This document shows positions 33,941 through 52,429 of a stretch of 64,000 nucleotides of DNA, in pieces. The position numbers and the translations under genes were made by a program. The stretch is taken from sequence record NC_055708.1. One strand, 5' to 3'. The notes beneath the pieces were generated by a model. That model saw nothing but the letters and a program-made list of their open reading frames with translations. It ran no database searches and was not told the origin of the DNA. Every line of letters begins with the position of its first letter. Positions within the stretch are counted from its first letter, which is position 1. This stretch comes from Enterobacteria phage ATK47.

Positions 33941-33970
33941 GTTTACTTTTAGATAGGGTAGTGATACTAT
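33941..33970 (+). promoter_or_regulatory. T4-type early promoter within palindrome
   Basis: GTTTAC, 18 nt, TG-a-TACTAT; ATAGGGTA...TACCCTAT inverted repeat. Confidence 0.6.
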
Positions 33971-40526: not shown

Positions 40527-40556
40527 GTTTACAACAAGATAGGGCTATGTTATAGT
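40527..40556 (+). promoter_or_regulatory. T4-type early promoter within palindrome
   Basis: GTTTAC, 18 nt, TG-t-TATAGT; ATAGGGCTA...TAGTCCTAT inverted repeat. Confidence 0.6.
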
Positions 40557-45116: not shown

Positions 45117-45146
45117 GTTTACTTCCTCCAAGGGTTTTGATACTAT
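45117..45146 (+). promoter_or_regulatory. T4-type early promoter for denV, spanned by anti-SD hairpin
   Basis: GTTTAC, 18 nt, TG-a-TACTAT; TTCCTCCAAG (45123-45132) is perfect complement of SD region CTTGGAGGAA (45161-45170). Confidence 0.6.
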
Positions 45147-45173
45147 ACATTCATCAACTACTTGGAGGAAATT

Positions 45174-45587
45174 ATGACTCGTATCAATTTAACACTTGTT
45201 TCTGAACTGTCCGACCAACATCTTATGGCTGAGTATCGTGAATTACCACGCGTATTTGGTGCAGTCCGTAAACATGTTCAAAACGGTAAACGTGTAAAGG
45301 ATTTTAAAATCTCTCCAACATTTATCTTAGGCACAGGTCACGTAACATTCTTTTACGACAAACTCGAATTTTTACGTTTACGTCAAATCGAGCTAATCGC
45401 TGAATGTTTGAAACGTGGTTTCAAAATCAAGGACACGACAGTCCAGGATATTTCCGACATCCCTGCCGAATTTCGTAATAATTATGTCCCGTCCGAAGCG
45501 TCCATTGCGATAAGTCAAGCACGCTTAGATGAAAAAATTGCTCAACGTCCGACTTGGTACAAATACTATGGTAAATCAATTTACTAA
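45174..45587 (+). CDS. denV: endonuclease V (pyrimidine dimer DNA glycosylase)
   Basis: [34 protein letters not shown]; near-identical to recalled T4 endo V. Confidence 0.97.
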
Positions 45588-45594
45588 GGAAAAA

Positions 45595-45924
45595 ATGAAA
45601 ACATATCAAGAGTTTATCACTGAAGTTACATTATCTGCGGAACAGAAAGCTGCTATCGAAGAAAGTAAAAATCCCAAAGTAACATATAAAGTAAATAGTA
45701 AAGGCGTTTTTGATGGCTTGGTTCAAGACCCTGAATTGAAAAAAGCTCTTTCTAAAACTAATGCGTACTTTGCTCCTAAATTTAACACAGCCGGTGTACT
45801 TATTGGATTGGATGTATTCAACTCTAAAGGTGTTCTATCTAATGCCTTTGGCTATGCCGCTAACAAAATTACCAAAGCCGCATGGGAATCCAATACCAAA
45901 CAAGCTCAAAAGCCTAGAGTATAA
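45595..45924 (+). CDS. internal protein-like (CTS leader)
   Basis: 109 aa from ATG 45595; N-terminus MKTYQEFITE. Confidence 0.7.
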   Translation: MKTYQEFITEVTLSAEQKAAIEESKNPKVTYKVNSKGVFDGLVQDPELKKALSKTNAYFAPKFNTAGVLIGLDVFNSKGVLSNAFGYAANKITKAAWESNTKQAQKPRV

Positions 45925-46030
45925 TTCTTGTCTAATAAAGGGAAACGCAACCTCTCCTTATGAACGTCGAGTCCTCTGAGTGATGTACCTTTTCCAACCT
46001 GTAATAAGGTCGAGCGCAATGCGGTAATGG

Positions 46031-46060
46031 GTTTACATAGCGAGTCGAAGGACCTAACAT
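46031..46060 (+). promoter_or_regulatory. possible early promoter (weak -10)
   Basis: GTTTAC, 18 nt, TAACAT. Confidence 0.3.
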
Positions 46061-46096
46061 GTGCCACGGAATGGCCCAAACCTTAAGAGAAATAAT

Positions 46097-46636
46097 ATGA
46101 GAACATTTTTAACTGGACCTTATCTATCCCTGATGAATGCTTTTACACACCATTCTGATGCTAGAGTAGAAGAAATTTGTAAGAACGGTTATATCCCACC
46201 ATTTGAAGACGTACTCAAGCAGTACTGTACACTTCGTTTAGACGGCGGCAGACAATCAGGTAAATCAATTGCTGTGACTAACTTTGCTGCTAATTGGCTG
46301 TACGATGGTGGAACAGTTATTATTCTTTCTAATACTTCAGCTTATGCTAAAATTTCTGCTGGCAACATTGAAAAAGAATTTTCTCGTTATTCTAGCGACA
46401 ATATTCGATTCCGTTTATTTACTGATTCTGTCCGTAGTTTTATTGGCAATGAAGGTTCTAAATTCCGTGGATTAACGCTTTCTCGTATTCTGTATATAAT
46501 TGACGAGCCTATTAAAGCTCCTGATATGGATAAGATTTACAATGTCCATATTAAAACAGTACAGTACTGCTGCAAAAGCAAATATTGCATCGGCGGTAAT
46601 TCTCGTCCTCAATTTTTTGTGATTGGAATGCAATGA
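46097..46636 (+). CDS. small P-loop NTPase-like protein (179 aa)
   Basis: Walker A-like GGRQSGKS and Walker B-like ILYIIDEP. Confidence 0.5.
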   Translation: MRTFLTGPYLSLMNAFTHHSDARVEEICKNGYIPPFEDVLKQYCTLRLDGGRQSGKSIAVTNFAANWLYDGGTVIILSNTSAYAKISAGNIEKEFSRYSSDNIRFRLFTDSVRSFIGNEGSKFRGLTLSRILYIIDEPIKAPDMDKIYNVHIKTVQYCCKSKYCIGGNSRPQFFVIGMQ

Positions 46637-46941
46637 TGACCACTATTGAAGTTTTTGAATATTGTTATAACAGCCCAGTATGCAATAAAAGGGCTCTTGT
46701 AGAAAATTATGAGATTTACCATTTTAAACCTAAACGATATCGTTTGACTAAAGGCCCGTTCGCAGGGCAGCAGGTTCTTTGTACTGCTCCTAATGCACGG
46801 TTGATGACTAGTATTCCGCATTTCAAAATGGAATTTATTGATGGGCCATTTAAGGGATTAATCACTCAAAGTTTAATGGCGTTTAATTCCGACCCATTTT
46901 TGATTAAAGAAAAATCTTGGATAAATTTATTTTCTAATTGA
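46633..46941 (+). CDS. hypothetical protein (102 aa)
   Basis: ATGA overlap with upstream P-loop gene. Confidence 0.5.
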   Translation: MMTTIEVFEYCYNSPVCNKRALVENYEIYHFKPKRYRLTKGPFAGQQVLCTAPNARLMTSIPHFKMEFIDGPFKGLITQSLMAFNSDPFLIKEKSWINLFSN

Positions 46942-46947
46942 GGTTAT

Positions 46948-47310
46948 ATGAAAGCATATCAAATTCTTGAAGGTGAACATAAAGGCACTATTTATTTTGA
47001 AGACTGTACTCAAGCCCGGATTATTGTCTCTAAGACTTTTAAAGAAGACGCTATTGTAGATCCAGAAATTTTCTACGGTTTGAATGCTCGTGAAATTGAA
47101 ATTGAACATCAACCTAAAGTTAAAATTGAAGGTGGTCAACACCTGAACGTTAACGTTCTGCGTCGCGAAACTCTGGAAGATGCAGTTAAGCATCCAGAAA
47201 AATATCCGCAGCTGACCATCCGTGTATCCGGTTATGCAGTTCGCTTTAACTCTCTGACTCCGGAACAGCAGCGCGACGTTATCGCTCGTACCTTTACCGA
47301 GAGTCTATAA
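46948..47310 (+). CDS. autonomous glycyl radical cofactor (GrcA/YfiD-like)
   Basis: C-terminal [25 protein letters not shown] glycyl-radical motif. Confidence 0.85.
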
Positions 47311-47534
47311 TGGCTAAATTGATTATAGAAGGGTCTGAAGATGTTTTAAAATGTTTTGCCGCCTGGTTTAGTTGCTCAGGCGAGCAATCATTCATTGAAG
47401 CATTTAGAATGGGTGATATTACTGGAAACTATCCGACAACTGATATCACTGTACGTGGATATGGTATTAATGAGCCTATCCAATTGGTCGAATATGACCT
47501 TGCCACAGATGAGGAAATTCCTTATGTCGATTGA
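47310..47534 (+). CDS. hypothetical protein (74 aa)
   Basis: SD GAGAG; ATGA junction. Confidence 0.5.
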   Translation: MAKLIIEGSEDVLKCFAAWFSCSGEQSFIEAFRMGDITGNYPTTDITVRGYGINEPIQLVEYDLATDEEIPYVD

Positions 47535-47790
47535 AGATATTAAAGGCTACAAGCCACATACCGACGATAAAATCAGTAAAGTGAACGCTATTAAAGATGC
47601 AGAAGTCCGTCTTGGATTGATGTTTGATGCTCTGATTGAAGAAGCATATATCTTAAAAGAAAATGAAACAGAGCAACAAACCAAAGAAGATATGGATGCA
47701 GTGCAGGCTCTTAAGTATGCTAAGCAACATCTAAAAGAAGCTAGTATGTGGGCTTGTCGTGCGGTATTTCAACCAGAGGAAAAATACTAA
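47524..47790 (+). CDS. hypothetical protein (88 aa)
   Basis: ATG 47524 with SD GAGGAAA. Confidence 0.5.
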
Positions 47791-48089
47791 TGGCTCAAAT
47801 CCTATCAGGCTTTGGAACTCATTATGAAGCATCTCGACGCATAACTGAAAGCAATCCTTTTGGCCTTGTTCCGAAGCACAAGAAAATTCAAAGCCTTGAT
47901 GACTTTGAGAATCGCCTATGGGCCCTCTTTAATGAGTACAAGGCATATCTGAAAGAAGACGCTGACGATTGTCTTGAAGAAGATGAGATTGCGTATTACG
48001 AACAACGCCTTGAACAGCTCAAGAACTTCCACCAGGTTCGTGACGAAGTATCTAAAGCAGTTAAAAAGTTAATTCCTTTCAAAGAGTAG
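47790..48089 (+). CDS. hypothetical protein (99 aa)
   Basis: ATG 47790 with SD GAGGAAA. Confidence 0.55.
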
Positions 48090-48117
48090 TTTACTTCTCC
48101 TCTAGTTGTGTTACTAT
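48089..48117 (+). promoter_or_regulatory. T4-type early promoter for regB, spanned by 14-bp anti-SD hairpin
   Basis: GTTTAC, 17 nt, TG-t-TACTAT; TTCTCCTCTAGTTG (48095-48108) is perfect complement of CAACTAGAGGAGAA (48126-48139) containing the SD. Confidence 0.65.
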
Positions 48118-48145
48118 AGACCTGTCAACTAGAGGAGAAATCAAA

Positions 48146-48604
48146 ATGACTATCAATTCAGACGTTTTTATCCGCCGCAATAAACTCCGTCGAATCTTTG
48201 AAACGGAGTTCCGCAAAATAAATGCCAGTATAAAAGATGCTGCAAAGTCTCTTGGACTACCAGGCTTTCATATCAAGTATTCTCAACATCTCTTAGATCG
48301 TGCCATCCAGAGAGAAATAGATGAGAATTACGTTTTTGAATTATTTCGTAAAGTAAAAAATCATGTTAAAGAAGTTGCAGAATTTTTATCAATGCCGGCA
48401 CGTCCAGATGTTGATGAAGATTTTGTCGAAGGTGTAGAATATCGCCCAGGCCGTTTAGAAATAACTGATGGAAATCTTTGGTTAGGACTTACAGTTTGTC
48501 GCGAAAATCCGGCATTCAAAATGAAGACTCTTCAATGCAGAATGGCTATTATTAACAATAAACGACTACCAGGAAAAGCTTCTAAAGCAGTGATTAAAAT
48601 CTAG
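48146..48604 (+). CDS. regB: RegB endoribonuclease
   Basis: MTINSDVFIRRNKLRR...YSQHLLDRAIQREIDE; near-identical to recalled T4 RegB. Confidence 0.95.
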   Translation: MTINSDVFIRRNKLRRIFETEFRKINASIKDAAKSLGLPGFHIKYSQHLLDRAIQREIDENYVFELFRKVKNHVKEVAEFLSMPARPDVDEDFVEGVEYRPGRLEITDGNLWLGLTVCRENPAFKMKTLQCRMAIINNKRLPGKASKAVIKI

Positions 48605-48612
48605 AGGTAAAC

Positions 48613-49155
48613 ATGAGAAAAGCACTACTCGCTGGTCTATTTGCTCTTTCATTATCAGCACATAGCTCCGAGCATACTTTTAGTAATGTCCAACTCGATA
48701 ACTTGAATTATGCTTATCAGTTTGGGGAACAGTTTTCTAAGGATGGAAAATTTAAAACGCATGAAAATATGCATAAGAAAGGACTTGGATACATAATGGC
48801 CGCAATACTATGGCAGGAATCATCTGCTGGTATTAATCTTAAAGATAAGAAAGGTCACCATGCGTATGGAATGTTCCAAAATTATCTACCAACAATGAGG
48901 GCAAGAATTAACCAGCTTGGTTATAATATGACTGATGCCCAAATTAAGAAAATGCTATCTAAGCGGTCTAATTCAACCAGATGGGCTTATATCGAATTTT
49001 CTTATTGGTTAAATATACATAATGGGGATATAAGAAAAGCTATATCCTCATACAATGCGGGATGGAAGACAAGTGCTGGAAGTAAATATGCTTCTGAAGT
49101 CCTAGAAAAGGCTAATTACCTTAAATCAAATAAACTACTGGAAATAAAAGAATGA
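48613..49155 (+). CDS. secreted lytic transglycosylase-like protein (SLT domain)
   Basis: N-terminal signal peptide (LLAGLFALSLSAHS); motifs WQESS, YGMFQ, SYNAGW resembling SLT family E-S / GLMQ / AYNxG. Confidence 0.55.
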   Translation: MRKALLAGLFALSLSAHSSEHTFSNVQLDNLNYAYQFGEQFSKDGKFKTHENMHKKGLGYIMAAILWQESSAGINLKDKKGHHAYGMFQNYLPTMRARINQLGYNMTDAQIKKMLSKRSNSTRWAYIEFSYWLNIHNGDIRKAISSYNAGWKTSAGSKYASEVLEKANYLKSNKLLEIKE

Positions 49156-51913: not shown

Positions 51914-51923
51914 CATTTAACAG

Positions 51924-51952
51924 TTTACTTCTCCTTGAGATGTGTTATAGTA
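51924..51952 (+). promoter_or_regulatory. T4-type early promoter
   Basis: GTTTAC, 17 nt, TG-t-TATAGT; TTCTCCT after -35 complementary to SD AGGAGAA. Confidence 0.6.
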
Positions 51953-51978
51953 GTCCTTACTTACTAGAGGAGAACGTT

Positions 51979-52158
51979 ATGACACGTAAAGAAAAGATTT
52001 CTAAGTTGATGTTTTTGATTGAAGAGTACGCTAATGCGGTATCTGATTGGGAAAATGCTCATGGTTGCGAAGATGGAGACATCGACATTAACAGAGCTAT
52101 GAAAAAGATGGCCGACGCTCACACCGAATTGCAAATGTATGTTAACGAGATTATGTGA
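51979..52158 (+). CDS. hypothetical protein (59 aa)
   Basis: SD GAGGAGA. Confidence 0.5.
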   Translation: MTRKEKISKLMFLIEEYANAVSDWENAHGCEDGDIDINRAMKKMADAHTELQMYVNEIM

Positions 52159-52372: not shown

Positions 52373-52401
52373 TTTACATCTTGGTAGGACTATGTTATAG
52401 T
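52373..52401 (+). promoter_or_regulatory. T4-type early promoter within palindrome
   Basis: GTTTAC, 17 nt, TG-t-TATAGT; GGTAGGACTA...TAGTCCTACC inverted repeat. Confidence 0.6.
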
Positions 52402-52429
52402 AGTCCTACCAAAACAAACGGAGAACAAA

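Follow-up and report, generated by a model that had tools for sequence, protein, structure and literature searches.

The regB start and its inverted repeat

The window analyzed here is a stretch of 64,000 nucleotides (nt) from Enterobacteria phage ATK47 (NC_055708.1), and the element of interest is an inverted repeat that spans the promoter and ribosome-binding site (RBS) of its regB gene. Upstream of regB, on the same strand, lies an open reading frame (ORF) in the position of vs.3, and the TAG stop of this ORF (48087-48089) ends on the base with which the -35 element of a T4-type early promoter begins. The spacer of this promoter is filled by a segment that is exactly complementary to the regB Shine-Dalgarno (SD) sequence and its surroundings. 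The best-supported reading of the element is that the SD is masked according to transcript origin: RNA entering regB from upstream would carry both arms and hide the SD, and RNA begun at the regB promoter would leave it free. We consider this reading probable, though well short of certain. The regB region is 100% identical to that of phage ATK48, where the gene is annotated as regB. Records matching the locus are mostly named Escherichia and Shigella phages, which we take to be Mosigviruses of the RB69 type.

The two arms, TTCTCCTCTAGTTG and CAACTAGAGGAGAA, are exact reverse complements with 17 nt between them (coordinates in Table 1). With imperfections, the repeat continues to 19 nt (48090-48108 with 48126-48144, 89%). 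No other perfect inverted repeat in the window reaches 14 nt at loop lengths of 3 to 40 nt, and only 0.015 such repeats are expected per window by chance (3 in 200 shuffles of 500-nt blocks). The original prediction had described a perfect 14-base-pair (bp) complementarity in which the left arm lies between the -35 and -10 elements and the right arm carries the regB SD. All of this is borne out by the sequence: GTTTAC and TGT-TACTAT flank the left arm, and the right arm holds GAGGAG, 8 nt ahead of the regB ATG at 48146. Six of the 14 pairs are G-C. When the RNA of 48060-48180 is folded, this hairpin is the dominant predicted structure (minimum free energy [MFE] -25 kcal/mol, z = -2.87); the SD is wholly paired in both the MFE and centroid folds, and the GGAG within it sits in the middle of the helix. 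A search of region 47000-49000 against the curated RNA families of Rfam 15, with E up to 1, gave no match.

In the 19 regB upstream regions compared, which come from different genera, TTTAC and TGnTAnnnT are invariant and the leading G is present in 18. A simple sigma-70 scan, with a threshold of 9 matching hexamer positions out of 12, did not report the regB promoter, which matches at 8. From promoter geometry, transcription is predicted to begin 16 nt downstream of the end of the left arm, as the earlier placement of that arm upstream of the start had anticipated. The predicted own-promoter leader is 22 nt long (GUCAACUAGAGGAGAAAUCAAA) and begins 2 nt before the right arm. Because the left arm lies inside the promoter, RNA from the promoter itself cannot contain it.

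For the regB RBS, we computed the cost of making positions -14 to +3, from the SD to the AUG, single-stranded in two RNA forms, the longer of which begins 120 nt upstream. In the window this cost is 15.3 kcal/mol for the upstream-initiated RNA versus 4.7 kcal/mol for the own-promoter RNA, and for T4 regB the values are 16.0 and 4.9 kcal/mol. Computed gaps range from 7 to 17 kcal/mol in 11 lineages. The predicted gap of about 10 kcal/mol agrees with the earlier expectation that the SD is free in promoter-proximal RNA and paired in read-through RNA.

Conservation of the stem in T4-like phages

The regB loci compared came from IMG/VR contigs and from phage records with annotation; in each, we inspected the 75-100 nt before the regB start. 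The same architecture, with other stem sequences, precedes regB in phages of the Tequatro-, Mosig-, Dhaka-, Moon-, Kanagawa-, Winkler-, and Gelderland-types and in MHG19. The stem-bearing set includes T4, sb4, the STML-198 type (locus L014), JS98, VR5, KM16, ZX14, X20, Virsaitis27, and MHG19 (stems in Table 1). In each lineage the left arm matches the local SD variant, for example GAGGAT in Winklervirus, AAGGAG in ZX14, and AAAGGAGT in MHG19. A weaker, composite form occurs in Jiaodavirus and Karamvirus, where a short outer anti-SD pairing surrounds an inner stem; the inner stems, GGGCCAT/ATGGCCC or GGGCTAT/ATAGCCC, differ by a compensatory change.

Covariation was counted in an alignment of 14 distinct lineages in which the arms were set in register with a constant linker, the register being picked for maximal pairing. 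When the -35-to-ATG regions were simply aligned with MAFFT, the SDs fell out of register, which made that alignment unusable for pair counts. In the arms-in-register alignment, 14 of the 15 pairs are altered on both sides. There are 52 cells with changes on both sides, against 19.6 +/- 3.2 after shuffling (0 of 500 shuffles reach 52) and 6-14 in slid controls with the partner shifted by 1-3 columns. By these comparisons about ten phage genera conserve the stem through compensatory changes. The pairing appears clearly to be under selection, since the pair types are diverse and, from lineage to lineage, the left arm changes with the SD.

These data bear directly on whether the repeat could be fortuitous, or a by-product of a purine-rich SD standing near a pyrimidine-rich spacer. 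The arms are indeed of low complexity, one CT-rich and the other GA-rich. However, the rarity of such repeats in shuffled sequence and the compensatory changes across about ten genera, together with the finding, detailed below for the window and T4, that a spacer pairs better with the region downstream of its own promoter than with the regions behind other promoters, effectively refute a chance origin.

The element also sits at a mosaic boundary. About 80 of the 154 related records become similar to the window at 48079-48089, and in about half of the related Mosigvirus genomes another gene replaces the upstream ORF and the unit of promoter, hairpin, and regB is kept. The STML-198 group has a comparable junction (L014:1435), located 8 nt upstream of its GTTTAC. 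Junctions 0-10 nt upstream of the -35 element in Mosigvirus and 8 nt upstream in the STML-198 group would suit a role at the DNA level, with the repeat around the -10 acting, in duplex or extruded DNA, as a recombination linker or protein target in cassette shuffling, or as a modulator of promoter activity or early shut-off. So would the fact that one cassette is common to different genes (T4 denV and VR5 regB; see below). Moreover, the authors who described promoter-early stem-loop (PeSL) cassettes speculated on a DNA-binding protein (PMC2839356), and the mechanism of early-promoter shut-off is not completely understood (PMC3014915). Against such a role, arm sequences vary freely between lineages and promoters and complementarity is kept, which fits pairing and not the recognition of a fixed sequence. 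Non-Watson-Crick stem positions in the interior are mostly G.T rather than A.C on the sense strand, a weak bias toward a structure of that strand, from few, non-independent mismatches (5 versus 1, p=0.22). Finally, recombination between cassettes needs the conserved promoter blocks only, not a repeat. We regard a DNA-level role as very unlikely.

A different arrangement was seen in Yersinia phage phiR1-RT (L023:717-777). Its spacer has no anti-SD; pairing is possible between the -10 region plus the few nt after it, CATGATATTAT...ACTCTT, and the SD/AUG region, AAGGAGAATATTATG, with predicted opening costs of 11.9 versus 3.9 kcal/mol. This pairing may be an alternative route to the same masking.

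Anti-SD spacers at other early promoters

The regB promoter is one of 13 T4-type early promoters found in the window by a scan for GTTTAC N13-16 TGnTAnnnT, all of them on the + strand. At most of these an inverted repeat brackets the -10 element, for example GATAGGGTA/TACCCTATC at 33941 and GATAGGGCT/AGTCCTATC at 40527. The mean duplex energy of a spacer with its own downstream 30 nt is -12.25 kcal/mol, versus -7.88 kcal/mol with the downstream regions of other promoters (permutation p<5e-5), and the strongest duplex in the window is that of regB (-23.2). The window holds three distinct perfect repeats of at least 10 nt, all within early promoters. By our own classification, three of the 13 promoters have anti-SD spacers, those of regB, denV, and a gene encoding a DUF7438 protein. 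CTCC or CCTC is enriched in the window spacers (3/13 versus a 2.8% background, p=0.005).

Another early promoter of the window carries a 12-nt perfect inverted repeat (52381-52392 / 52401-52412, within TTGGTAGGACT/AGTCCTACCAA) that clamps the -10 element and leaves the SD untouched. Since both arms lie at or before the predicted start, any role of this repeat in RNA would be limited to read-through transcripts.

The complete T4 genome gave a similar picture. The pattern scan found 32 early-type promoters, all on the early-gene strand; these are defined by pattern only, as the RefSeq T4 record carries no promoter features. Pairing of spacers with their own downstream regions again exceeds cross pairing (-10.94 versus -6.62, p<5e-5), and CTCC or CCTC occurs in 6 of the 32 spacers versus a 3.3% background (p=5e-4). 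With ad hoc cut-offs, nine promoters fall into an anti-SD class, eight have clamps over the -10 that stop short of the SD, and 15 have weak or no pairing. The anti-SD promoters, with genes assigned from coordinates, precede motB.2, nrdC.8, mobD.5, regB, denV, alt.-3, 30.8, alc, and ndd.4, and several of their spacers match that of regB in strength (-20 to -23 kcal/mol). T4 denV (L036) has the same design as denV of the window in another sequence, ATCTCCTGTAG/CTACAGGAGA. Its cassette (GTTTACATCTCCTGTAGG...CTACAGGAGAA) is identical at 49 of 51 positions to the regB cassette of the Dhakavirus VR5 (L034:536-590), and one cassette serves different genes in different phages.

The hairpin is thus an example of a class of promoter-plus-stem-loop cassettes and not a device specific to regB. 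In T-even phages, anti-SD early-promoter spacers might even form a mobile "translational insulator" design of general use, a proposal that we offer tentatively and think somewhat more likely to fail than to hold. The original prediction had also proposed that the arrangement could couple regB translation to transcript origin, with RegB's own cleavage preference as part of the rationale. The coupling gains structural support from the pairing, the selection on it, and the energy gap. The logic particular to regB is not supported, because by our own classification the same design is found at denV, at the DUF7438 gene, and at nine of the 32 T4 promoters.

The distribution of GGAG sequences is relevant here as well. 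Most window early genes with GGAG SDs have them unmasked, and denV has a masked one; on these grounds a regB-specific link to GGAG was ruled out. A related possibility is that the hairpin protects or stabilizes RNA, either by hiding GGAG from RegB in polycistronic RNA, in which case RegB autoregulation would spare the messages of neighboring genes, or as a barrier to 3' exonucleases for upstream messages. RegB needs single-stranded GGAG and is inhibited by RNA secondary structure (PMC3014915, PMC1702504), and the regB GGAG lies mid-helix in a 14-bp stem. Such protection is compatible with origin-dependent masking and overlaps it. However, T4 denV has the same design although its SD is reported to resist RegB for reasons of sequence (PMC1702504), and as an explanation of the design in general, protection from RegB therefore fails; most of the other GGAG SDs behind window early promoters are left unmasked. 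As the primary role, RNA protection seems to us unlikely.

Table 1. Positions of the features discussed, in the window unless a T4 record is named, and the regB stems of T4-like phages
Feature	Position	Strand	Basis or remark
-35 element GTTTAC, T4-type early promoter	48089..48094	+	sequence; conserved upstream of regB
Left arm (anti-SD) TTCTCCTCTAGTTG	48095..48108	+	fills promoter spacer; covaries with right arm across lineages
Extended -10, TGT + hexamer TACTAT	48109..48117	+	makes up most of hairpin loop
Predicted transcription start, regB promoter	48124	+	7th nt after -10, from promoter geometry
Right arm CAACTAGAGGAGAA	48126..48139	+	holds SD GAGGAG (48132-48137) and RegB-type GGAG (48134-48137)
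regB coding sequence, 152 amino acids (aa) + stop	48146..48604	+	Pfam PF10715 REGB_T4, E=1.9e-69
Upstream ORF, 99 aa, vs.3-position gene	47790..48089	+	PHROG phrog_2037, unknown function
Early promoters	75, 33206, 33561, 33941, 36867, 40527, 41822, 45117, 48089, 51923, 52372, 56536, 61897	+	pattern
denV anti-SD, perfect 10 nt	45123-45132 / 45161-45170	+	TTCCTCCAAG / CTTGGAGGAA
DUF7438 gene cassette	51923-51981	+	TTCTCCTTGAG / CTAGAGGAGAA, one mismatch, one G.T
DUF7438 gene, 59 aa	51979-52158	+	third anti-SD cassette ahead of it
Nine T4 anti-SD promoters	NC_000866: 8218, 53943, 58780, 62797, 65413, 123093, 130310, 136336, 166807	minus	pattern + own-SD complementarity
regB stem, window (Mosigvirus)			TTCTCCTCTAGTTG / CAACTAGAGGAGAA, 14 bp, perfect
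regB stem, T4			TTTTCCTCTTGACTG / CAGTTAAGAGGAGAA, two G.U pairs
regB stem, STML-198 type (L014)			TTTCTCCTCTTTATG / CATAAAGAGGAGAAA, 15 bp, perfect
regB stem, JS98 and VR5 (Dhakavirus)			ATCTCCTGTAG / CTACAGGAGAT
regB stem, KM16 (Moonvirus)			TCTCCTGTAAG / CTTACAGGAGA
regB stem, ZX14 (Kanagawavirus)			ATCTCCTTTTAGT / ACTAAAAGGAGAT
regB stem, X20 and Virsaitis27 (Winklervirus)			ATCCTCATTTG / CAAATGAGGAT, SD = GAGGAT
regB stem, MHG19			TCCTTTGGTT / AATCAAAGGA

Transcript origin and known systems

For masking to depend on transcript origin, RNA must enter regB from upstream. The nearest early-type promoter upstream of regB is that of denV, at 45117. From 45174 to 48089 the + strand genes are packed tightly, and scans of this interval found no strong promoter-like signal and one weak terminator-like match (46592-46607). 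Taken together, these features make read-through into regB plausible. In T4, early transcripts normally extend through downstream early promoters. The regB promoter of T4 is a typical early one, shut off at 2-3 min (PMC3014915).

In the proposed mechanism, the hairpin would form only in RNA begun upstream of the regB promoter, for example at the denV promoter. In such read-through RNA the 14-bp helix would hide the regB SD together with its GGAG, so that 30S binding would be blocked and RegB cleavage at this GGAG blocked too. RNA from the regB promoter, starting about 2 nt before the right arm and lacking the left one, would be open in its leader, available both for translation and for cleavage by RegB. 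RegB synthesis would thereby depend on its own promoter, the T4 counterpart of which closes down 2-3 minutes into infection, and none would accumulate from read-through. The element is one of the compact, recombinationally mobile early-promoter cassettes, the PeSLs, in some of which the spacer doubles as an anti-SD.

The leader also bears on cleavage by RegB, which in T4 cuts its own SD (PMC3014915). The site recognized by RegB with S1 is a single-stranded GGAG followed by an A-rich 7 nt, with A at positions 6, 8, 10, and 11 and a pyrimidine at 7 (Durand et al. 2006, PMC1702504); no C is found at position 9 among the efficiently cleaved T4 RegB substrates (PMC1702504). Scored by these rules for the T4 enzyme, the regB GGAG and the AAAUCAA after it (48138-48144) have the expected A at positions 6, 10, and 11, but positions 7, 8, and 9 are A, U, and C. 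Position 9, C in the window, is A in sister Mosigvirus loci (L005-L007). Given this C, the efficiency of self-cleavage may differ in the window phage.

The same hairpin could limit the entry of upstream transcription into regB, as an attenuator or terminator that insulates the unit, the pairing with the SD being incidental. Indeed, Arbiol et al. 2010 (PMC2839356) found that expression of lacZ behind one RB49 PeSL stem-loop fell by about as much as behind a strong terminator, and the regB element fits the architecture of the class for which attenuation was proposed in that work. However, the stem is followed by AAATCAAAATGA and not by a T-run, and the terminator scan had no match at the site; on these two grounds an intrinsic (Rho-independent) terminator was ruled out. 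Moreover, the RB49 stems that were tested are typically polyG/polyC (PMC2839356), which the regB stem with its six G-C pairs is not. The left arm follows the SD in each lineage, which a pure terminator would not need, and the passage of T4 early transcripts through downstream early promoters, noted above, also argues against attenuation. We judge an attenuator to be distinctly unlikely.

Translational coupling, with a ribosome at the upstream TAG melting the helix, was set aside. A ribosome at 48087-48089 would cover just the first 2-3 stem pairs, and the position of the stop relative to the stem varies between lineages.

Origin-dependent masking is nonetheless open to several objections. The helix could be opened briefly by translation during transcription or by a ribosome that terminates at the upstream stop, and the fitted register inflates the percentage paired in the covariation alignment, whose lineages are related. 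No hairpin was found upstream of regB in Gaprivervirus (TH55), Krischvirus, or Aeromonas phages, the Krischvirus gene being without a proximal promoter. In Marfavirus (Klebsiella phage AmPh_EK29, L026:950-1010) the regB hairpin over the -10 leaves out the SD. With the hairpin missing or SD-free in some regB lineages, masking is not obligatory for regB. Finally, the authors of the PeSL work proposed a terminator or attenuator role for such stem-loops (PMC2839356).

The AmPh_EK29 hairpin, GTGTAGGAGTA/TACTTCTACAC, contains a GGAG in its 5' arm and no SD in its 3' arm.

The RegB nuclease inactivates a large number of early messages, and reviews emphasize that its synthesis has to be kept under tight control. 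If masking by transcript origin is correct, the hairpin would be a third layer of RegB control, beside promoter shut-off and self-cleavage, and would explain the silence of regB on read-through RNA. Should the insulator proposal hold more widely, each such gene would be translated only from own-promoter RNA, uncoupled from cumulative read-through, and the PeSL stem-loops of the anti-SD subclass would act on translation and not on termination. The comparative data suggest that some early-promoter stem-loops of T4-like phages, so far called terminators or recombination linkers, are anti-SD masks. With promoter, insulator, and RBS in about 60 nt, the cassette is a compact natural design of possible use in synthetic biology. 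The underlying principle, that an RBS hairpin makes translation depend on transcript origin, is among the textbook mechanisms of T4.

Among described elements, PeSLs are the closest in architecture. They were reported for RB49/phi1 and later for T4/PST and KVP40/nt-1, and begin with a stretch rich in A and T, followed by an early promoter whose stem-loop lies between -35 and -10 or over the -10, and then by an SD and the ATG; G-T pairs were noted in the stems, and the cassettes were linked to gene-replacement junctions and modular shuffling (Arbiol et al. 2010, PMC2839356; Comeau et al. 2014, PMC4122927). The regB element likewise has a sigma-70-type early promoter in intergenic space, a 5' arm in the spacer, the -10 in the loop of a stable 14-bp stem, an AT-rich stretch before the promoter (22 of 29 positions in 48060-48088 are A or T), and the SD and ATG after it. 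It adjoins replacement junctions, as described above. Its promoter matches the PeSL T4/PST consensus TTTACW N17 TAYWAT, with a 16-nt spacer counted from TTTACT. It differs in that its 3' arm is the SD itself, with no T-run afterwards, and in that the published role of PeSLs is that of a terminator or attenuator and a recombination linker, unlike the SD mask proposed at regB. The texts of PMC2839356 and PMC4122927 do not mention regB, translation, or SD masking.

In function the nearest relatives are the hairpins of T4 genes e, soc, 49, and I-TevI, in which the SD and/or AUG lies in a helix and only transcripts from internal promoters are translated efficiently, with a 100-fold effect reported for gene e (PMC3014915). 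As in these genes, the regB SD is predicted to be sequestered in upstream-initiated RNA and freed in own-promoter RNA, which lacks the 5' arm. In contrast, their internal promoters are late and impose a temporal delay, whereas that of regB is early, with the 5' arm inside the promoter spacer; a search between 44800 and 48150 did not find the late promoter TATAAATA. The element is predicted to confine regB to the immediate-early burst and to insulate it from early units lying upstream. Because its internal promoter is early and not late, the regB element would work like this family without being a strict member of it, and regB is absent from the list of such hairpin genes in PMC3014915. The RBS-sequestering hairpins of Aeh1 mobE and T4 segB (PMC3014915) resemble it as local structures that mask the RBS of a potentially harmful nuclease gene. 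Those genes, however, encode free-standing homing endonucleases, and the passages of PMC3014915 consulted mention no covarying spacer anti-SD for them.

RegB autoregulation through cleavage of its own SD (Ruckman 1989 and Piesiniene 2004, summarized in PMC3014915) involves the same GGAG in the same leader as the hairpin, a GGAG reported to be conserved and cleaved in T4-related phages including RB69. This autoregulation acts in trans through the protein, whereas the hairpin would be a cis element that chooses which RNAs are translated and cleaved. No earlier description of the regB stem turned up in the full-text literature searched, which did not extend to the original papers on regB or to the 2003 review of the T4 genome. 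Both ingredients of the element are already known: PeSL cassettes on the one hand, and origin-dependent translation through RBS hairpins on the other. What the comparison suggests as modestly new is that promoter spacers serve as anti-SD sequences in about a quarter of T-even early-type promoters.

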